Shown here: positions 211 to 14,992 of the stretch, one piece after another
Numbering within the stretch: position 1 is the stretch's first letter
Layout of the letters: each line of letters starts with the position of its first letter
NCBI GenBank assembly: GCA_016839365.1
Contig: JAEOUH010000013.1
Coordinates: 1-14,992 of the forward strand
Direction of reading: 5' to 3'
Length of the DNA stretch: 14,992 nt
DNA from: Candidatus Hermodarchaeota archaeon
GTDB lineage: Archaea > Asgardarchaeota > Hermodarchaeia > Hermodarchaeales > Hermodarchaeaceae
Notes under the pieces: model-generated
The model's database searches: none
What the model saw: the letters and a program-made list of their open reading frames with translations, nothing else
Told to the model about the DNA's origin: nothing
Translations under genes and position numbers: made by a program

Positions 211-1944
211 ATGACACCCAACCAGTCACGAGATCAAACTACACTCCTTAGCCAAGCCCAAGCGGAAGCCATTAAAAAATTTGATACTGTCGCAGCTATG
301 ATTGAAAACCTCCTTGGGTCTCCTCCCATTGGCCATTATTCAACTATGAGTTTTGCATCTTTTCCCCTTCAACTCAAAGGACCCAGATTCGGAGTAAAAG
401 AATACAAAGACAATAAAGACCACAATGTTCTACAATTTTCGAAGGACTTACTCACAAAGTATCCAAAGTACCTCGAGCCAATTCTCTGGCGTGAAGCCTT
501 TCTCCTACACTTGCCTAGTTCTATCCGGGAAGTTTCGCTGGCTGCTGACCTTGGGCTATACTGTTATTACCGTTTCGGACTCAGAACAAAAAAACAAAAA
601 GACCAGTTCCTCCAAATCTGGCAAACGACTTCACCATCCATTGATTACACCTTTTACCGCTATTATCCCACAGCTGGGTTTGAATACTTCGACAATCTTG
701 TTGATGGTAACTTTCTCAAAATGGCAAAAGGGTGGTTCAAACCTTTCATCCAGGTGACAACAGCGATAAGTGCAGAAACGTACACAGAGAACCTCGAGCG
801 ATGGATGTTCAATTATCACCGGAAGCTTCGTCCCATAGAACACAAAATCCTTTGTGGTTTAAACGACTGTCTTACTTGCTCACAAATCGAATTGGCAGAA
901 CACCTCAAACTTCGCCAACCAACAATTAGTCAGGTTATCAAACGCTTAGCGCAACAACACTTGCTTAGATTCATAATCTACGAAAACTATCCCAAACTTG
1001 GGCTTCAACCTATTACAGTTAAATTCGCTTCTAATAAAGCGAAAATAACTAATTCACTAATGAAGATGATTTCAAAGATTCGTTATTCACATTCATTACA
1101 GGAATTTGATTACCAACTATTTGCTTCTTTTTTGATACCAACAGAACGAATGACCCGATTCCGCCAATGGCTAAAGCAAGTTACCTCAAGTTTTAATCTT
1201 GTACCACCGGAGATACGATTTATTACAGAAAGAATGCATGCACGAAATCTACATTTGTATAACACTCAAGCAGGCGAATGGTCACTAGAGATTGAATCAC
1301 AGTTGGAGAATTTTTCTCGGTTGGTATCTGAAAAATTAACATCGCATTTACCTTCTATTAAATCATTCAAAATGGCGCCTCATCAGATTAAAAGAAGCAT
1401 CAAAATTAAGCAAGAAGATTTTATCTACATGCAAAGAGCAACTGAGGTCTTTCTTGCTACTCGGCATGTGAAGTTTATTGAATCTCATGAGTTACGAGAA
1501 GCAGGTTATAAAGAATCAGAACACATGGCGTATCGTCGGCGAGTAAAGTTTTTAGAAAAAAATGAACTGATTAGCCCCCCTCTTGGAATTGGATTACTGA
1601 ATATCGGCCTGAACTCGGTGATATTCATTGACATTAGATCTCATGAAGAGGAAACCAGACGAATTCTTTCAGCATGTCAGATCTTCCCACACATATCTTC
1701 TAAATTATTTGATGATGGTACTGGTATAGCAACCCTCCCCGTTCCTTCCATAATTGCGGTTTCTCTAATGACATCTCTCGACGAACTTTTAATGTCACTT
1801 GGGGTTCCTGCAGTTACCACAATGAAACCTACATGGAAAGCCTATGGATGGATGGGACCTCCAATCGTAGACTCCTTGAACTACGATTTTGAAAAAAACA
1901 AATGGATATGGACTAAAGACACACTACCAATACCACGTATTTAG
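211..1944 (+). CDS. Large multi-domain winged-HTH / tandem Lrp-AsnC-like putative transcriptional regulator (577 aa), paralog 1
   Basis: Long ORF with a wHTH at about aa 208-255 (HKILCGL...SQIELAEHLKLRQPTISQVIKRL), followed by an Lrp-type linker (NYPKLGLQPITV). A second HTH-like helix (YRRRVKFLEKNELI) and a C-terminal YDFEKNKWIW follow. It aligns by eye along its length with 2347..4083. Confidence 0.75.
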   Translation: MTPNQSRDQTTLLSQAQAEAIKKFDTVAAMIENLLGSPPIGHYSTMSFASFPLQLKGPRFGVKEYKDNKDHNVLQFSKDLLTKYPKYLEPILWREAFLLHLPSSIREVSLAADLGLYCYYRFGLRTKKQKDQFLQIWQTTSPSIDYTFYRYYPTAGFEYFDNLVDGNFLKMAKGWFKPFIQVTTAISAETYTENLERWMFNYHRKLRPIEHKILCGLNDCLTCSQIELAEHLKLRQPTISQVIKRLAQQHLLRFIIYENYPKLGLQPITVKFASNKAKITNSLMKMISKIRYSHSLQEFDYQLFASFLIPTERMTRFRQWLKQVTSSFNLVPPEIRFITERMHARNLHLYNTQAGEWSLEIESQLENFSRLVSEKLTSHLPSIKSFKMAPHQIKRSIKIKQEDFIYMQRATEVFLATRHVKFIESHELREAGYKESEHMAYRRRVKFLEKNELISPPLGIGLLNIGLNSVIFIDIRSHEEETRRILSACQIFPHISSKLFDDGTGIATLPVPSIIAVSLMTSLDELLMSLGVPAVTTMKPTWKAYGWMGPPIVDSLNYDFEKNKWIWTKDTLPIPRI

Positions 1945-2103
1945 CGAAATAATTGTATTCCAATCCTCATTGCTTATCTGGCTACTGCACAAAAAGGAAT
2001 TTTGAAAGTAATATTTGCTCCATATTTTTGCAACTGATTTTAGGTCTTTAAAACGGTCTCTCAGACTCGAAAGGTTACTAGCAAAATACGGAGGCATCCT
2101 ATT

Positions 2104-2148
2104 ATGTGGCCCCCTCGTCGTCCTGAACCTGATCTAAAAGTAGATTAA
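2104..2148 (+). CDS. Putative micro-peptide 1, MWPPRRPEPDLKVD (14 aa)
   Basis: GGAGG at 2090-2094, ATG at 2104, TAA at 2146-2148. Homologous to the peptides at 2175 and 4147(-); the shared residues differ only at synonymous third positions. Confidence 0.7.
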   Translation: MWPPRRPEPDLKVD

Positions 2149-2174
2149 AAGAAATTATAGAGGCATCTAATCAA

Positions 2175-2207
2175 ATGTATCCCCCGCGCCATCCCGAACC
2201 GTTCTAA
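2175..2207 (+). CDS. Putative micro-peptide 2, MYPPRHPEPF (10 aa)
   Basis: AGAGG at 2159-2163, ATG at 2175, TAA at 2205-2207. Tandem copy of the GAGGCATC-spacer-ATG-[WY]PPR-x-PEP unit. Confidence 0.7.
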   Translation: MYPPRHPEPF

Positions 2208-2223
2208 GAATCACTTAATAAAA

Positions 2224-2265
2224 GGAAACCAATTCGGTTTCCCTCTTCTTTTCTTTACATTTTTC
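2224..2265 (+). terminator. Hairpin plus pyrimidine tract downstream of the two peptide ORFs
   Basis: Perfect 7-bp stem GGAAACC-AATTC-GGTTTCC (2224-2242), followed by CTCTTCTTTTCTTTACATTTTTC. Confidence 0.6.
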
Positions 2266-2301
2266 AACTCGTTTACCTTACACCCGTAATCGGAAAGTAG
2301 A

Positions 2302-2325
2302 ACTATCAAAACACTAGTGTATAGT
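2302..2325. promoter_or_regulatory. Palindromic putative operator upstream of regulator paralog 2
   Basis: Perfect palindrome ACACTAGTGT (2311-2320), flanked by inverted ACTAT/ATAGT arms, about 25 nt before ATG 2347. Confidence 0.3.
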
Positions 2326-2346
2326 CATTGCATGGATGGCTAGCTC

Positions 2347-4083
2347 ATGTCGTCAGAGCTTCAGAAGCTTATTCACCGATTTAAACCCAAACAGGACTCA
2401 TTAGCGAAGGTGCTAGATTTAGAGGCTTTACCACGACGGAAAGATCGGATTCTCGATTTCGTGTGGTCTGATCATCCATTGGTCTATGATCGTCCACGGT
2501 TTGGTGTCATTGAAAGCAAAATCGCTGACCGACCCCATCGAGGGTGGCAAGTGATGTTGGCTCAAAGTTTCCAAGATGAAAGTGCTTACGTTTTGGATTG
2601 GGTGCTCTGGCGGGAAGCCCTTCTTAGCTTTCTGCTCCCTCATCTTCGGCATATCCCCGAAGCCGCAGATCTCGGCATGTATGCGGGCCTTCAATACGGA
2701 AAATTCAGCGAATCAGACCGAGAGGCCCTCACAGCATTATGGAAACAGGTTTCTCCTCCCCAACATTACCAACACTACATTTACGATGGCCCCTTTGGTT
2801 TTCCCCTCTATGATCAAGTCGTCTCTGGAACCTTCCTCCAACGAGTCGTTCCATGGCTCAATACCCTCCGACCCACCACCACACGAACAACCATTAGTTC
2901 CCATACATACACAGCAGCTCTTGAACGCTGGCAGCTTGAAACCCACATTCCCCTCACTGAACCCGAACACTTCATCCTCATTGCCTTAAGTCGCCTTACC
3001 AATCCCCTGCACCAAAGCCGTCTCGCTGATCAACTCAACATGAGCGTCTCTGGTCTCAGCCAACACCTCACCAATCTTGCCCAGCGCCATCACCTACGCC
3101 TGCTACGATCTATTGATTTACCCTTAATCGGGCTCCTTCCGCTTGAAGTGTTTTTTAATGTCACTAACCGAAAAATGGTGCAAAGAATCTCTGAAATTAT
3201 TTCATCAATCCAATATGTCTACTTCATCCAATCATTCCGAGAGAACATTCTACATTGCAGGTTGCTCATACCATACGAAAGACTCGATATAGTAAATGAG
3301 TGGTTAGACGATCTTGCAATTATTGAGGGAACAGGAGCAGTTCAATCGATAGCTAATTCCTCTCTTTTTTTCAATTGGAACTTTGATACATATATTCCAG
3401 ATTCAGGGTGGTCTCTTGATTTCACACTAATTCTCAATCTAATCGAATCCTCAATATCAAATAATCTTGAAAATCAGGTAGCTCCGAATCAAGGTTTTCA
3501 TTATTCTTATGATTCTGTAGCTTTGAAGGAATTTCCAATTAGGTTACAATTGGAAGATTTTGCGTATATACGGCGAACGTTTGATTCGATCTTATTGACA
3601 GAGAGAATTGCCTCTCAACCTTCTCAGGAACTTCGTGACTTGGGGATTCCTGAAACAATGCACATGCGGTATCGCCGGCGAATAAGGAAACTTGAAAGGC
3701 TGAAAATTAGTAAGAATAATGGAATAACGCTTTTTCACATCGGCCTGGATACCGTTTTGAAAATATACATCAATGAGCCACGTATGATTTCTGAACAAGT
3801 ACTCGGTGTCTTGTCTCTGCTGCCATATCTGAATGGTATAGTGCTTGAAAATGGCCATGCGTATGTGTTTGCTTATGTTACAAATTCTCACGCAGTAGAT
3901 ACGCTTTCTACTTTACAGAAGACCTTTGCTAAAAACGAAATCGAGGCATCGATAGAAGCACGACCTGCCTGGCAGTCTTTTACTGGGTTTGAAACACCGG
4001 TTTCACCCAAGAACTATGATTTCGCTAAAGGTGAATGGAAATGGGATGAATGCACACTCCCTAAGATACGGAAAAATACGTAA
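2347..4083 (+). CDS. Large multi-domain winged-HTH / tandem Lrp-AsnC-like putative transcriptional regulator (578 aa), paralog 2
   Basis: Shares PRFGV, LWREA, AADLG, TY(T)xxLERW, the wHTH (HQSRLADQLNMSVSGLSQHLTNL), EDFxY, ELR, YRRR, PxW and NYDFxKxxWxW with 211..1944. Confidence 0.75.
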   Translation: MSSELQKLIHRFKPKQDSLAKVLDLEALPRRKDRILDFVWSDHPLVYDRPRFGVIESKIADRPHRGWQVMLAQSFQDESAYVLDWVLWREALLSFLLPHLRHIPEAADLGMYAGLQYGKFSESDREALTALWKQVSPPQHYQHYIYDGPFGFPLYDQVVSGTFLQRVVPWLNTLRPTTTRTTISSHTYTAALERWQLETHIPLTEPEHFILIALSRLTNPLHQSRLADQLNMSVSGLSQHLTNLAQRHHLRLLRSIDLPLIGLLPLEVFFNVTNRKMVQRISEIISSIQYVYFIQSFRENILHCRLLIPYERLDIVNEWLDDLAIIEGTGAVQSIANSSLFFNWNFDTYIPDSGWSLDFTLILNLIESSISNNLENQVAPNQGFHYSYDSVALKEFPIRLQLEDFAYIRRTFDSILLTERIASQPSQELRDLGIPETMHMRYRRRIRKLERLKISKNNGITLFHIGLDTVLKIYINEPRMISEQVLGVLSLLPYLNGIVLENGHAYVFAYVTNSHAVDTLSTLQKTFAKNEIEASIEARPAWQSFTGFETPVSPKNYDFAKGEWKWDECTLPKIRKNT

Positions 4084-4100
4084 AAAAAGAAAAAAGAAAA
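4082..4100 (-). terminator. Oligo-T terminator for the minus-strand peptide ORF
   Basis: The minus strand reads TTTTCTTTTTTCTTTTTTT, starting 8 nt after the TAG of peptide 3. This is a typical archaeal U-tract. Confidence 0.55.
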
Positions 4101-4108
4101 TGATAGTT

Positions 4109-4147
4109 CTAACTTGGGACAGGCGTCGAAGGTCGTGGGGGGTACAA
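4109..4147 (-). CDS. Putative micro-peptide 3, MYPPRPSTPVPS (12 aa, TTG start), convergent with regulator paralog 2
   Basis: The minus strand reads GGAGG(4160-4156)-CATTGTGA-TTG TAC CCC CCA CGA CCT TCG ACG CCT GTC CCA AGT TAG. An in-frame TGA lies directly before the TTG, a TATA-like TTTATA at 4204-4199, and a U-tract downstream. Confidence 0.65.
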   Translation of the reverse strand: MYPPRPSTPVPS

Positions 4148-4501
4148 TCACAATGCCTCCTTATGGGTTTGGTTCTAAAGAGACATTCTGAATGGAACAT
4201 ATAAACAACGGAAAATTCATGCAAGGTTCTGACCGGAAAACTATTGAAATTAGGAAAATTTCCCAGTAAAATATCTGAGTTCATTCAAGCTCAAATTTTG
4301 GGCTACTCCGGAAAAAAGTAGCATTAGGATTGGATGAGCCCATGAAAGTGACTTTCTGTTCGTTTTCGGGCATATTTCGAACAGTTACGCGATAGCTGAG
4401 TCTTTCAGCTCTGAGAATGCATTGTTCACTTATCGTCAACTCTGTCTGCGCTTTTATTACGCCCGTTCAATGTTCAAAATACAGCGAACGGAGAACAAAG
4501 G

Positions 4502-5722
4502 ATGGAGATTATTCGGCATGAATTACAACGCCCATCTGTATTCATCGATGAGGCGAAGCTGTCCATTGATTATGTTCCTCCCAACCTCCCCCACCGTGAG
4601 GAACATCTCCGTAAATTAACGCAGTTGTTCCGTGGTGTCATTGAGACACCTGGTCAAGTGTCACAAAAGGTAATCATTATCGGTAATACGGGTTCAGGCA
4701 AGACCTCGGTCACTAAACTGTTTGGAAAATTGCTCTGCGAAGTGGCGAAGAGTCACGGATTTAATCTGGTGTACGTGCATGTGAATGCGCGTCGTGAACG
4801 AACCGAATACATGATTCTGAACAAAATTCTCTCTGCGTTTCAGACAGGGATACCACTTCGTGGGTTATCAACACAAGAATTGCTTTCAATCATTTTGGAG
4901 TATATTGAATCGAATAATCTCTACTTGCTTGTCACGTTAGATGAGCTTGGGGTGTTCCTCAAGCGTCGTGGAGAAGAGATACTCTATCTTTTGTCGCGCA
5001 CGGTGGATGATCAACTCAATGCCCAACAGCGCATCTCCCTAATTGGCATAAGTCGTGATCCATTATTCGGCTTCATCCTTGACCCGAGCACTTGGAGTAC
5101 TCTTCAGAAGAACGTCCTCTATTTTAATCGCTATGATTCGTGTCAACTTCGAGATATCTTGGAGTTTCGGGTAAAAGCGGCAGTGTTGGACGGCGCAGTG
5201 CCGACCAGTACAATCGACCTAATCACCGATATCGCAGCTGCTTCTGGGGACGCACGTTACGCCTTGGAGCTGCTCTACAATGCAGGTAAAGTGGCCGATG
5301 AGAAGGGGGTGCTTCGAATACTGCCTGAATATGTGCGAAGCGCGAAGGCGTTCATTACGCCGGAAATACGACGCGAAGTCCTTGTCGATTTATCGCTGCA
5401 TCGTCTTTTCCTTCTACTTGCGGTTTGCAGGTTGTTGAAATCTTCGGAAGATGCCTACATTACCACTGGCGACCTTGAAGCTCGTTATGAGCTTATCTGC
5501 GAAGAGTATGCACGGAGTCCCCGCGCACACACTCAGGTATGGACATATATCCAAGACCTTGTGGGGCTTGGGGTTCTCACTTCAAAAATCTCCGGTGCTG
5601 GGCAACGCGGGAAAACTACGCTAGTCAGTCTCCCTGACATCCCTGCGGCTGTCCTAGAATGTGAGCTGGAATTACTCCTTGAGAAAAGGAGAGTTGGTGC
5701 TAAAGGTGGTCGAAGAAACTAA
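4502..5722 (+). CDS. cdc6: Cdc6/Orc1 family AAA+ DNA replication initiation protein (406 aa)
   Basis: N-terminal LSIDYVPPNLPHRE, Walker A GNTGSGKT, Walker B VTLDE, sensor II GDARYALELL, and a C-terminal winged helix ending in GQRGKTTLVSL. Confidence 0.95.
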   Translation: MEIIRHELQRPSVFIDEAKLSIDYVPPNLPHREEHLRKLTQLFRGVIETPGQVSQKVIIIGNTGSGKTSVTKLFGKLLCEVAKSHGFNLVYVHVNARRERTEYMILNKILSAFQTGIPLRGLSTQELLSIILEYIESNNLYLLVTLDELGVFLKRRGEEILYLLSRTVDDQLNAQQRISLIGISRDPLFGFILDPSTWSTLQKNVLYFNRYDSCQLRDILEFRVKAAVLDGAVPTSTIDLITDIAAASGDARYALELLYNAGKVADEKGVLRILPEYVRSAKAFITPEIRREVLVDLSLHRLFLLLAVCRLLKSSEDAYITTGDLEARYELICEEYARSPRAHTQVWTYIQDLVGLGVLTSKISGAGQRGKTTLVSLPDIPAAVLECELELLLEKRRVGAKGGRRN

Positions 5723-6026
5723 CACTACACTCATCGAGCAGATGCCCAATACGCGTCCTATCCCCGTTGAAATTCTCTTTTCCTCCCGGGGTCGAATCAA
5801 GATAATCCGTCTTCTAGCGGAATGTGGAGAATTGAACATCTCTGAGATTGCGAGGCGAACACAGTTGAACCATAGTACCACACGAAGACATCTTCTGTTC
5901 CTAGAACGTGCAAAACTTGTTCAAGAGAAAACCTTTGGTCGAATTCGGATATATCGTTATAAGATCGAGAATCTACGGGCGCTCGCGCTTCGACGATTTA
6001 TTGAACTCTGGGAAAAGTCGGAGTGA
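5706..6026 (+). CDS. Small ArsR-like winged-helix DNA-binding protein
   Basis: FSSRGRIKIIRLL...LNISEIARRTQLNHSTTRRHL..LE...LV...FGRIRIY. The start is uncertain (GTG 5706 overlapping the cdc6 end, or ATG 5742); the ORF-track start at 5661 is probably too long. Confidence 0.85.
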   Translation: MVEETNTTLIEQMPNTRPIPVEILFSSRGRIKIIRLLAECGELNISEIARRTQLNHSTTRRHLLFLERAKLVQEKTFGRIRIYRYKIENLRALALRRFIELWEKSE

Positions 6027-9448: not shown

Positions 9449-10939
9449 CTATATCCAACTTCCTTGACTCAACTTGGCTCGGGGATCAATAGCGGCGATT
9501 TTAGCGTTTTCCACAACGAGTGGGTCTCTCCAGGCCCAGCTGCAGCTCTCTAAGTCGAAGGTTTCAAAGGTTAAAGGCCATCCACCATTTTCGGGACCGG
9601 TGATGAAGACATCAGATTGGGTGTGGATGTATTTGTTGAGATAGTAACGAATCAGTGAAAAAGATCCAGGTGGTAGCGTTGTGTAGATGAAGAACTCGTT
9701 TTCATGGGTCTGATATTCGGTAAGCTGTCTTATCCACGCTTGGGGCAGCTCGTTAACTATTCCAAGTAACCGCTCATCTTCTTCTTTCACCCGAATGATG
9801 ACGTCTTCGAGTAAACCTACTCTTCTTATCAGAGGTGTAGGCTGTATCACACCGAGTTCTATCAGTTTGGATCTTCGACGACTAACCTGAGAGATACTCA
9901 TTCCAGCGATAGTCGCAAGCTTTTCTAGCTTAATTCGTGCATCTGGTGCTAGCAACGGTATCAATCGCTTATCTTTGCTGTCTGGAACGTAAAGCCGATG
10001 TGGTTGTGGCTGCTTATCATCGTGGACCTCTGATTGAGGATTAAGACAGCGGTTGTGAAGTAGATGTGCGCCGATGAATAGTTTCTGCCAATTAATCGCC
10101 CATCGTTTTTGCTCCATTCTGTAATGTGTGAACTCGACTGTTCGGCCTACGTCTTCAACTAGAAACAGAGTATGTGTTGTCCCAAAATGAGATTGGAGAA
10201 AACCGGAAAGCTGTTTAAGCCGTTCTTTTGGCACAGCCATAAAGCATAGTGCTCGTCTTACGTTACCTGCGAGTTCGATATACGAAAGCATGTAAGGGCT
10301 TTGAATCGAAGTATTTGTATCATGAAGTTCAATGAAAACCGGCACCAATCCTAGACTTTGATAATTCACCTGAGCAAGTATTCGGCATATGTTTAATCGC
10401 CGCAAGCGGCTCCAACGGCTGCGTGTTTTTTTGTAAGAACTACCTAATAATCTGGCGAGTGCAGGAATGGTAATCATTGGCATATTGCTGAAAGCCTTGA
10501 TGATGTGAATGTCAAGGGAAGATAAAGGAAATACCGTGAATTTGCACAACTCAGTGGCTAAGTTCCAAAACTGCTCGACAGACAACGGGGCGGCTGTGCA
10601 CTTCGCAATCGATTGTAGCAAGACAATTATTCGTTCAAGGAATTGCCCATCCAGTTTTCCATCCCATTCAATGAAATCAGCTACTCCTCGGTATCCGCCG
10701 GGTTCAAAGCTCACCTTGAACTTGGTAAAGGATGAATCCATGGAGCTACGAAGCCAACCAATTTTGCCTGAGAGCTTATTATCAAAGAATACTTGGAAAT
10801 CGTCTCTTACCATTTCTGGTAAAATAGCTGGGAGCCAATGGTCTAGTATCTGATATGGGCTAGTGATGGGCGTATCCGGTATTTCTCGCCAAGGCTTGCA
10901 TTTTAGATGTTTAGCTACAAAGTCCAGATTCAGGCGCAT
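9449..10939 (-). CDS. Tandem wHTH / Lrp-AsnC-like putative regulator (496 aa), distant relative of the two left-hand paralogs
   Basis: Two HTH units (LDIHIIKAF...TIPALARLLG...; KDKRLIPLLAPDARIKLEKLATIAGMSISQVSRRRSKLIELGVI), an Lrp linker (VNYQSLGLVPVFIEL) and unit-terminal Y/F-x5-W motifs. Confidence 0.75.
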   Translation of the reverse strand: MRLNLDFVAKHLKCKPWREIPDTPITSPYQILDHWLPAILPEMVRDDFQVFFDNKLSGKIGWLRSSMDSSFTKFKVSFEPGGYRGVADFIEWDGKLDGQFLERIIVLLQSIAKCTAAPLSVEQFWNLATELCKFTVFPLSSLDIHIIKAFSNMPMITIPALARLLGSSYKKTRSRWSRLRRLNICRILAQVNYQSLGLVPVFIELHDTNTSIQSPYMLSYIELAGNVRRALCFMAVPKERLKQLSGFLQSHFGTTHTLFLVEDVGRTVEFTHYRMEQKRWAINWQKLFIGAHLLHNRCLNPQSEVHDDKQPQPHRLYVPDSKDKRLIPLLAPDARIKLEKLATIAGMSISQVSRRRSKLIELGVIQPTPLIRRVGLLEDVIIRVKEEDERLLGIVNELPQAWIRQLTEYQTHENEFFIYTTLPPGSFSLIRYYLNKYIHTQSDVFITGPENGGWPLTFETFDLESCSWAWRDPLVVENAKIAAIDPRAKLSQGSWI

Positions 10940-13010: not shown

Positions 13011-14992
13011 TCATAGTAATCCTCTTCTTTTCTTAATGTCTGAGACAATCGAAGTGGCACGTTGTTCTGGGACAATCTCCCAACGTGAAAATTTGGTTTG
13101 CCAGACAGCTTTTCCTGCAGTGCTAGATCGTAGCACATCAGCCAGATCAAATGACTCGGCTACTGGAATCACTCCAGTAATGGTTACCCAATCTCCTCTA
13201 AATTCCACATCCTCAAGTTGTCCTCGTTTCGACTTGATGACGTTCACAGTTGCCCTTTGAAACTCTTTGGGAACTATTACTTCAAGATTATAGATTGGTT
13301 CGAGAAGAGTGATCTTCGCTTTTTCAAATCCAAGGAAGATAGCATCACGTACCATAGACATCAGCTCAACCCTACTCCTTTCGTTAATATCGGAGCTAAC
13401 TTCAAGCTCTTTAATACACACCAAGGTCATGCCTACTGGCTCTGAACACAAAGGTCCGCGTTCCATGGCCCAATTGAACCCATCGACAATAGCCGCCTTT
13501 ACATCTGGTGAGTTATCAAAGTCAACCAAGCTGATTAGGGTATTTCCACGCGAGTCTGCTTGCCAAACTGATTCTAGAGCCTTCCGTTCATCTTGAAACT
13601 GAACTGAGATTCGTACTGCATTTTTGTTATTTGGGCTTGGGTTTTTCTTGGGGTGTGTGTAGCTGCTCGTTAATGTTTCTCGATAGAGAACAATCGGATC
13701 TGAGGCATGGACCAGAATTCCTGCCGCTTCAATGTCTTTTAATGCAATCTCTAAGTGTAACAGACCCAACCCAGACAAGAGATTTTCTCCCGTTTGCTCG
13801 TTGACTGAAAAAACAAGGTTGGGATCACTTTTTGTCAGATCCTCAACAAATGTTAGTAAACGTGGTAAATCCTTTGTATGGTGCGGTTCTATTGCTATTG
13901 TTACGACAGCCTCGCTTAAGTAAGTAATTTCTTCAAATGGGACCATTCCTTCCAAGAAGTGTTGACCAGTTATTGTATCGCCAGGCTTCACTTCATCTAA
14001 GCCGATAATTCCGCAAATGTTCCCCGCAGTCAAAGAAGGAATTACTACCTGGCGTGAACCCATGAATAGGGTAACTCGTTGAACTTTATGCAATTTATCT
14101 GAGGGGAAGATGCGTATTTGTGTTCCACGTCGAATAGTACCTGAAAATAGTCGACCTACAGCAACAAGACCATGTTTTGATTCTGCAACAACATTCGTAA
14201 TAGCGATTATTAGAGGTCCCTCTCTCTCGCATTGACGGAGGGCTAGCCCAGCTGGTGAAGTGATATCACCCTTCCAAATGAATCCCACTCGATTTTTTTG
14301 GGCGTTTTTTGGTGACGGTAATCGGTCTATTATCATATCCAATATCGGCTGGTGGATGGGTAAGATTTGGCTTAGCCTCTCAACGGAATCGTCCTGGTAG
14401 CTTTCTATAATATTTTGAAATTGAAGGTCTGCTTTTTGCATTAAATCAACTGTGAAAGCCCATTTATGCAGGGCAGAACCGAAAGCAACCGTATTAGTAT
14501 CGGTACCAACTTTCCATTCAATAGTATCATCGTCTTTTGATGCAAACGCAATTACTTTGTTAACATCTTGAATAATCTGTGTAAGGCGATCTTGTATGGC
14601 AATCGGTGATAGTTTTAATTCGCGAATAAGTCGGTCAATCTTGTTAACGAATAAAACAGGTTTTACACGTTCTTTAATCGCTGATCTGATTACGCTTTCC
14701 GTTTGGGCCATAACACCTTCAACTGCATCAACAACGATGATTGCTCCATCAATAGCCCGGAGTGCCCGAGTAACCTTCCCACTGAAATCAACGTGACCTG
14801 GAGTATCAACTAGATTGACCACATATCGCAATCCTTGATGTACATGGAGTAGTGAGATATTAGCTGACTTGATAGTTATTGAGGCGTCTGCGGCTTTCCG
14901 CGGTGACGTTTCCTCGCCGTTGCTCTTCTTCCAAATAGTCTAGTGCTCGAGCTTGACCCACCAGATCATAAGAGAGCATCCCGGCGTTTGCA
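13011..14992 (-). CDS. fusA: Elongation factor 2 family GTPase, probably the divergent archaeal paralog aEF-2p. 5'-truncated by the window and interrupted by a 31-nt intron: join(>14992..14910, 14878..13011)
   Basis: The upstream exon reads ANAGMLSYDLVGQARALDYLEEEQRRG. After removing the insert the protein continues ITIKSANISL...NLVDTPGHVDF, NKID, FGSALHKW, GRLFSG, GLGLLHLEI, VLYRET, GPLCSEP, LLEPIY and LRSSTAGKA. Confidence 0.9.
14879..14909 (-). other. Putative 31-nt archaeal mRNA intron with bulge-helix-bulge/loop junctions
   Basis: The minus strand reads GAGG-AA|A-CGTC-ACC-GCGG-AAAG-CCGC-A-GACG-CCTC-AA|T. GAGG/CCTC forms a 4-bp central helix with 3-nt segments AAA and AAT next to it. Cutting after the second nt of each gives CGA GGA ATA ACT ATC (RGITI) in frame. 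Confidence 0.85.

Follow-up and report, generated by a model that had tools for sequence, protein, structure and literature searches.

A candidate leaderless peptide-Lrp cassette and its promoter link to the PolB2 mutasome genes in Hermodarchaeota

Micro-ORFs and regulator genes at the locus

The window analyzed here, a stretch of 14,992 nucleotides (nt) from Candidatus Hermodarchaeota archaeon (contig JAEOUH010000013.1 of assembly GCA_016839365.1), carries a duplicated cassette of regulator and micro-peptide genes which, together with promoter data, points to an undescribed, putative peptide switch in Asgard archaea. Regulator R1 (211-1944, plus strand; 577 amino acids [aa]) is accompanied by the micro-peptide open reading frames (ORFs) P1 and P2, and regulator R2 (2347-4083, plus strand; 578 aa), which is 29% identical to R1, is accompanied by P3. 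Each peptide locus forms a stand-alone transcription unit. Genomes, loci, contigs, and Asgard families are labeled G, L, C, and f, respectively, and G000 is the genome of the window itself.

P1 (2104-2148, plus strand) starts with ATG and encodes 14 aa of the W-P-P-x-R-P-E-P type. P2 (2175-2207, plus strand) is a P1-type second copy on the same transcript that also starts with ATG and encodes the 10-aa peptide MYPPRHPEPF. P3 (4147-4109, minus strand; 12 aa) is convergent with R2 and starts with TTG, ATG being the start codon in most of its orthologs. A preliminary description, made from the letters of this DNA, had proposed the three ORFs and their PPR and PEP codons. All three were found again in the window sequence at the proposed positions and with the proposed codons, the ATG start holding for P1 and P2 and not for P3. 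The GAGGCAT ribosome-binding sequence placed 8 to 11 nt before each start was likewise recovered: the Shine-Dalgarno (SD) sites lie at 2090-2094 (P1, plus strand), 2159-2163 (P2, plus strand, one mismatch), and 4156-4160 (P3, minus strand), with the GAGG core 9, 11, and 8 nt from the start codon. The terminator-like ends also stood, since a hairpin and T-rich tract ends the P1-P2 transcript (2224-2260, plus strand; hairpin plus T-run at 2224-2242) and an oligo-T terminator-like tract lies behind P3 (4098-4081, minus strand). As described, one regulator lies 5' of each peptide locus, co-directional in one case and convergent in the other. One 212-nt contig from a soil metatranscriptome spans 2145-2356 at a depth of 4, which is weak and cannot show transcription, strand, or level; two further RNA runs yielded nothing of use.

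SD-led ORFs of 6 to 30 aa with the loose start pattern M-x?-[WYF]-P-x(1,2)-R number 20 in the 2.2-Mb genome versus 10 to 14 in shuffled sequences. The density of this pattern is about one match per 150 to 200 kb, far below that of the window, which has three within 2.1 kb. The loose pattern is weak by itself, and the sequence alone is only suggestive. Conservation provides the decisive comparative evidence that the micro-ORFs are real. R1 and R2 form a tandem pair in each of the other 14 genomes of the genus, and part of the sister genus shares it. A scan of the flanks of regulator homologs, which the preliminary description had called for, found a co-directional SD-led micro-ORF behind R1 in 15/15 genomes of the genus, one facing the R2 end in 15/15, and such ORFs in the sister genus too. 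Both peptide loci have their own SD site and TATA box across the 15 genomes. No micro-ORF neighbor was found for a third, more distant regulator paralog in 16 loci. Second, P2-like peptide copies are present beyond the window in G007, G012, G001, and L165.

The peptide core over 42 distinct ORFs is aromatic-Pro-[PARQ]-x-x-Pro-x-Pro, with proline at core positions +1, +5, and +7 in 42/42, 38/42, and 38/42 ORFs and with mixed synonymous codons. Selection acts on the peptide, since all four Pro codons are used. Pairwise identity at codon positions 1, 2, and 3 is 0.94, 0.77, and 0.40. Length differences are whole codons, and the G017 peptide carries an in-frame tandem duplication; the frame-breaking indels and nucleotide-level conservation that would have spoken for a DNA repeat were not encountered. 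A crude ratio of nonsynonymous to synonymous change (pN/pS) of 0.16 to 0.5 is affected by saturation and register shifts and is not relied on. Together, these comparisons support the micro-ORFs as genes under protein-level selection. The proposed constant N-terminus with a variable tail held in part: the aromatic-Pro and the prolines at +5 and +7 are fixed, the positions in between vary, and the constant peptide part in family f6 (probably Thorarchaeales) is a C-terminal Pro-Trp end.

The ORFs might instead arise incidentally from a conserved element at the DNA or RNA level, for example a repeat or the G-string of an origin. In favor of this, P3 has a cdc6 gene nearby and a G-run on its reverse strand. 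However, the third positions vary, the indels are whole codons, and the SD and TATA spacing is conserved; moreover, unrelated nucleotide sequences encode Pro/Trp peptides in other families, and no Rfam match was found within 1900-4550. This explanation is already largely refuted and is scarcely credible. An origin-element reading (an origin recognition box [ORB] G-string) was rejected. A mobile-element reading was also rejected for Hermodarchaeota, where the locus has stable surroundings of housekeeping genes and tRNAs and relocates by inversion.

Regulator domains and co-variation with the peptides

The predicted structure of R2 (pLDDT, 89.7) is an alpha/beta fold in which a zincin-like domain (residues 1-200) and two modules of winged helix-turn-helix (wHTH) followed by RAM (residues 200-578) span the entire chain. 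The same domains are assigned to R1 by homology to the modeled R2. Residues 205-577 best match the fused Lrp-fold enzyme NirDL (Z, 14.4; root-mean-square deviation [rmsd], 5.3; 285 residues aligned), and the C-terminal half also matches the Lrp regulators PH0061 and PF0864, as found with Foldseek and VIA. The order of wHTH and then RAM that defines the Lrp/AsnC superfamily is thus found twice per chain. The two wHTH-RAM modules agree with the tandem-Lrp/wHTH regulators named in the preliminary description, which had overlooked the N-terminal zinc-less zincin fold.

Folded separately, residues 1-200 reached a pLDDT of 94.4. All 50 VIA rows for this N-domain are of the zincin clan, the best being tricorn factor F3 (Z, 10.0; rmsd, 3.9; 170 residues aligned), and the ESM Atlas rows largely agree. 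The Z-scores are moderate, but a zincin fold for the modeled domain is supported by how uniform the list is and by where the motif residues lie. Foldseek gave no match for the N-domain at an E value of 0.001, a profile search of PDB sequences found none, and a feature search of the ESM Atlas gave no usable match. HExxH is replaced by R-E-A-x-[LF], the third-ligand position is Asp108 rather than Glu, and the Glu of the motif is also lost in many f6 and distant members; judged from these residues, the N-domain cannot be a zinc protease. It shares its fold with the gluzincin/M1 metallopeptidases and differs from them in both His ligands, in the third ligand, and, in many f6 members, in the catalytic Glu. 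IrrE/PprI, ImmA, and CapP are zincin-fold damage sensors, whose damage-response context would be similar. IrrE and CapP were not among the listed fold matches of the N-domain, which does not exclude them.

The window R2 clusters with G014 and L165, which share its P3 type (tree support, 100/99). G007 is the nearest relative of the window genome by polB2, PPB2, and iRadA identity, and its R1 is sister to the window R1; its P3 is different, and its R2 is 77% identical to that of the window in the N-domain, 81% in HTH1, and 28% in RAM1. The corresponding values for L165, which has the same P3, are 73%, 87%, and 82%, rising to 96 to 100% further on. RAM1 is the most variable R2 segment, unlike a fixed amino acid pocket, and RAM1 and the linker are hypervariable and co-vary with P3. 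In the core group, peptide similarity has a partial correlation with the C-region (residues 263-545) of 0.82 in R2 and 0.39 in R1 once the N-domain is controlled for; with the N-domain, controlling for the C-region, the values are -0.10 in R2 and 0.11 in R1. Cross pairs of a peptide with the other paralog gave rho values of -0.19 and 0.19. These patterns support, without proving, the RAM region as the predicted specificity determinant and R1-P1 and R2-P3 as cognate pairs, in line with the pairing proposed in the preliminary description. They also support possible pherotype-like allele swaps. Bacterial pherotypes are hypervariable peptide-plus-sensor blocks, and the pattern seen here is similar. 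A predicted complex of R1 with P1 scored 0.02 against a mark of 0.32; P1 had been extended by 16 upstream in-frame, probably untranslated residues, and the result is evidence neither way.

The peptide might alternatively sit in the inactive zincin cleft like an uncleavable substrate, with the zincin domain controlling the Lrp modules. Besides the uniform fold matches, R89, E90, D108, W132, and Y146 are near-invariant in the N-domain despite the loss of the His ligands, so that a peptide-shaped groove may persist, and Pro-rich peptides resist cleavage. However, peptide variation is not tracked by the N-domain once the C-region is accounted for, and the motif is kept just as well in the peptide-less third paralog, which makes this arrangement unlikely. 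A division of labor is conceivable, in which the zincin domain could grip the aromatic-Pro end, which is constant, and leave the variable part to RAM1.

The micro-ORFs could also act by being translated, through ribosome stalling, as proline/aIF5A sensors, as attenuators, or as CreT-like proline-codon RNA toxins checked by the regulators. Early Pro-Pro occurs in 36/47 ORFs, the SD sites are strong, hairpins or T-tracts follow the ORFs, and CRISPR arrays or cas genes are neighbors of some distant loci. In addition, the first Pro codon is CCC in 30/42 ORFs versus 29% genome-wide, for which no explanation beyond shared ancestry is at hand. CreT resembles the present ORFs in its SD site, its mini-ORF with Pro-Pro, and its downstream hairpin. 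However, the CreT toxin requires two Pro codons directly before the stop codon (bioRxiv 10.64898/2026.06.02.729485), an arrangement seen in 0/47 ORFs here; Pro-Pro is absent from 11 of the 47, and the ORFs are longer. No linkage to CreA or cas was seen in Hermodarchaeota, where the loci lie among housekeeping genes and tRNAs, and the convergent P3 has no downstream gene to attenuate. Stalling would also leave the allele-specific co-variation with RAM1 unexplained. An action by translation is quite improbable.

Two further observations concern regulator-like proteins. The window encodes a 496-aa tandem AsnC-HTH protein (9449-10939, minus strand) that is very weakly R2-like, with no zincin motif or peptide neighbor seen. 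In the sister genus, L106 and L108 (G018 and G016) carry a further tandem pair of distant regulator paralogs with a Pro-rich minus-strand frame between them.

The peptide promoter element and the PolB2 mutasome genes

The peptide genes share a TTGCA-N14-TATA element that the preliminary description had overlooked. The P1/P2 promoter (2028-2052, plus strand) consists of TTGCA at 2028-2032, a 14-nt spacer, and a TATA box at 2047-2052, and the P3 promoter (4200-4224, minus strand) of TTGCA at 4224-4220, a 14-nt spacer, and a TATA box at 4205-4200. Upstream, at 1986-1995, the TGCA/T-tract half-site of the P1 promoter recurs in inverted orientation, as it does in many orthologs. In first-copy peptide genes, the TATA box is about 55 to 60 nt ahead of the start, and TG[CT]A is exactly 18 nt before the TATA box in most. 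Archaeal activators have their site just upstream of the TATA box, as in this element.

A promoter matrix built without the window was scanned over G000 and ranked the P1 promoter first, that of polB2 second, and the P3 promoter third. Among 3,030 G000 ORF upstream regions, the top two genes were polB2 (24.3 bits) and PPB2 (17.5 bits), the 99th percentile being 5.6 bits. The PPB2 gene encodes a small protein that was identified by its N-terminal MGRT motif (PMC11791011). Ahead of polB2, the element keeps the same offset in 12/12 genomes with a 5' end; it does so ahead of PPB2 in 12/12 genomes of the genus, with a spacer of 14 to 15 nt, and a weaker variant precedes the RadA-like iRadA gene. 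It is absent upstream of R1, R2, and cdc6. The genes polB2, PPB2, and iRadA are dispersed over three Hermodarchaeota loci (on G000:C42, L176:11363-13567 minus and L176:4727-5041 plus; on G000:C24, L249:1386-2153), with polB2 and PPB2 9 kb apart in differing orientations. Together, the three make up a mutasome, which DNA damage induces in Sulfolobus (PMC11791011). The promoter link to the mutasome genes is thus well supported in Hermodarchaeota and only hinted at elsewhere.

TTGCA is the half-site of the archaeal Lrp protein Ss-LrpB (PMC2715240), a likeness that favors R1 and R2 as the predicted readers of the element. Another factor could read it instead, either an Orc1-2-like Cdc6 paralog or an alternative TFB, in which case the pairs would be the same, the peptides would be a damage-induced output, and R1 and R2 would control other genes. 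Sulfolobus Orc1-2 activates dpo2 and other damage genes via ANTTTC (PMC6061795), an element also clear in the f6 PPB2-polB2 promoters. The form A[CG]TTTC is enriched in f6 peptide promoters (23 versus 4.6), and G000 has at least three Cdc6 paralogs, one of them adjacent to the cassette. However, ANTTTC occurs in the spacer upstream of the TATA box in only 5/34 Hermodarchaeota peptide promoters, the invariant part is the Lrp-type half-site TTGCA, and cdc6 adjoins the cassette in only 3/15 genomes plus L165; control by another factor has a low probability. Compared with the Sulfolobus Orc1-2 regulon and the PolB2-iRadA-PPB2 mutasome (PMC6061795, PMC11791011), the Hermodarchaeota genes are alike in sharing a promoter element and in being probably co-induced. 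They differ in their dispersal and in an element, TTGCA-N14-TATA, that is common to the peptide genes; the Sulfolobus regulon is not known to include a peptide.

Regex scans for more regulon members gave chance-level matches, mostly inside genes. The PPB2-polB2 operon promoters of f6 (L269-L279) carry ACTTTCGG, which is close to the Sulfolobus Orc1-2 damage-response element and suggests such a regulon in Asgard archaea. A conserved promoter-like block of R2 at 2285-2330 is unlike the peptide promoter element, and a conserved GGATG precedes the R2 start. The polB2 genes of several genomes have a long insertion, probably an intein, at residue 446. A ribonucleotide reductase-like gene directly upstream of PPB2 (L176:1524-4619) is apparently intein-interrupted. 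At L252 (G012:C80), there is a second iRadA-PPB2-polB2 operon that is divergent (about 40% identity) and lacks the TTGCA element; it was probably acquired horizontally.

A candidate peptide switch and its reach across Asgard families

A profile search found strong regulator homologs in many Asgard families, and Pro/Trp-rich micro-ORFs flank them in at least six. The micro-ORFs have 8 to 26 codons in f2, f5, f6, f15, and f31, in divergent, convergent, or tandem layouts, and one f2 genome is a closed 1.418-Mb chromosome. Some regulator homologs have no detectable peptide gene. Three f6 peptide classes track three regulator clades, including paralogs inside one genome. The f6 peptide promoters contain a TT[TG]C-N10-G[AC]AA palindrome (16 matches versus 0.5 in shuffled sequences), and related half-sites recur every 19 nt.

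The best reading of these comparisons is a leaderless peptide-Lrp switch that would be tied to a DNA-damage regulon; it does not belong to the RRNPP systems. The Pro-rich peptide would be the effector of the adjacent regulator, and its main binding site would be the pocket that RAM1 and RAM2 form as a fused pseudo-dimer, the amino acid site of Lrp proteins. The regulator would bind the element just upstream of the TATA box and activate its own peptide gene, a positive feedback, as well as the error-prone PolB2 mutasome. The zinc-less zincin domain may serve as a second, noncatalytic input or as a scaffold. We give this mechanism, in which the regulator would activate both the peptide gene and the mutasome under control of the peptide, a probability of roughly 0.55. 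It shares its core claim, a translated peptide ligand, with the readings in which another factor reads the element or the peptide sits in the zincin cleft.

Several findings weigh against the proposed switch. Taken by itself, the promoter pattern occurs only about twice as often genome-wide as in the control (57 versus 25 hits) and shows no enrichment in G000 intergenic DNA, so that it is the conserved position that carries the promoter argument. The f6 palindrome is missing from the f6 PPB2-polB2 promoters, which have ACTTTCGG, and the polB2 query was unmatched in 4/5 other genomes tried, three of which have a peptide gene. The co-varying C-region is physically nearest to the peptide gene, and hitchhiking in a recombination tract can mimic the signal; the RAM1 correlation exceeds that of the nearer tail (0.74 versus 0.35). 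The genomes are kin rather than independent, so that permutation counts overstate, and the R1 co-variation is modest.

The layout recalls RopB-LCP/SIP, Rgg/SHP, and ComR/ComS of the RRNPPA systems (PMC10518010), in which an ultrasmall leaderless ORF with its own promoter lies beside a cytosolic regulator, in divergent, convergent, or tandem layouts and with allele-specific peptide codes. The cassette has the small adjacent peptide gene with its own promoter, and its peptide code co-varies with the predicted receptor, strongly for R2 and modestly for R1, with the above caveats of linkage and kinship. However, the C-terminal all-helical TPR-like peptide-binding domain of these systems is not found in the R2 model, which has a zincin-like domain and two Lrp modules; the earlier view of an RRNPP-like layout on an unrelated scaffold agrees with this. 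The Hermodarchaeota peptides further differ in being Pro/Trp-rich rather than hydrophobic, in their archaeal host, and in their putative export. As the preliminary description had noted, neither a signal sequence in these leaderless 10- to 14-aa ORFs nor a conserved enzyme neighbor was found in Hermodarchaeota, which sets the cassette apart from clusters for ribosomally synthesized and posttranslationally modified peptides. The intracellular action held possible there does not follow from the missing leader, since streptococci export communication peptides that have no leader (PMC10518010). Family-5 solute-binding proteins are encoded in G000, which shows only that peptide uptake is possible. 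With Lrp/AsnC proteins (Ss-LrpB, FL11, and PF0864) and NirDL/AhbAB, the regulators share the wHTH-RAM fold, twice per chain as in NirDL, and with Ss-LrpB the TTGCA half-site. They differ in the extra 200-residue N-domain and in a predicted effector that is a gene-encoded peptide instead of an amino acid; unlike for NirDL/AhbAB, no heme-synthesis context was seen around the cassette.

Limited full-text literature searches found no paper describing the peptide-regulator cassette, no description of an archaeal gene-encoded peptide signal with a cognate transcription factor, and none of an Lrp protein reading a peptide. The cassette is spread across Asgard families and escapes gene callers. The analysis names the ligands, predicts where they bind (RAM1 and linker), and supplies natural allele pairs for specificity tests along with a DNA site and candidate target genes. 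Two questions, Asgard peptide signaling and the control of damage-induced mutagenesis, thereby become testable in vitro without culturing Hermodarchaeota. A wider and rather doubtful extension is an Asgard-wide system of cell-to-cell peptide signaling that is built from Lrp proteins, has exchangeable pherotype alleles, and would turn on the error-prone PolB2 mutasome in Hermodarchaeota. If true, the lineage closest to eukaryotes would have an SOS-like response under quorum control, in which the dead zincin domain would provide a second input, possibly one that senses damage.

Other features were seen around the distant cassettes. In f6 (L111-L157), a Csa3-like CARF-wHTH gene (HFX_2341-like) often lies between the divergent peptide gene and regulator, a possible cyclic-nucleotide input. 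Distant regulator pairs with Pro-rich micro-ORFs adjoin CRISPR arrays or cas1/2/3/4 genes at L052, L073, and L076. An SD-led small ORF lies directly behind the peptide gene at L160, L162, and L163 (f2 and f15), so that the peptide gene heads an operon. Three genes upstream of a distant regulator homolog, an ORF of 49 codons (L074:537-686) combines a helix like that of signal peptides with a tail rich in Gly and Pro and is possibly an exported form. Elsewhere in the window, an ORF of the EF-2/EF-G family (13011-14831, minus strand) encodes 606 aa from a TTG and lacks the first part of the GTPase domain unless its start lies upstream or beyond the window end. The cdc6 paralog next to the cassette (4502-6026) is overlapped by an ArsR-type wHTH gene. 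In relatives, the cassette has a different cdc6 nearby, one preceded by ORB-like boxes, which places the locus close to a probable origin.

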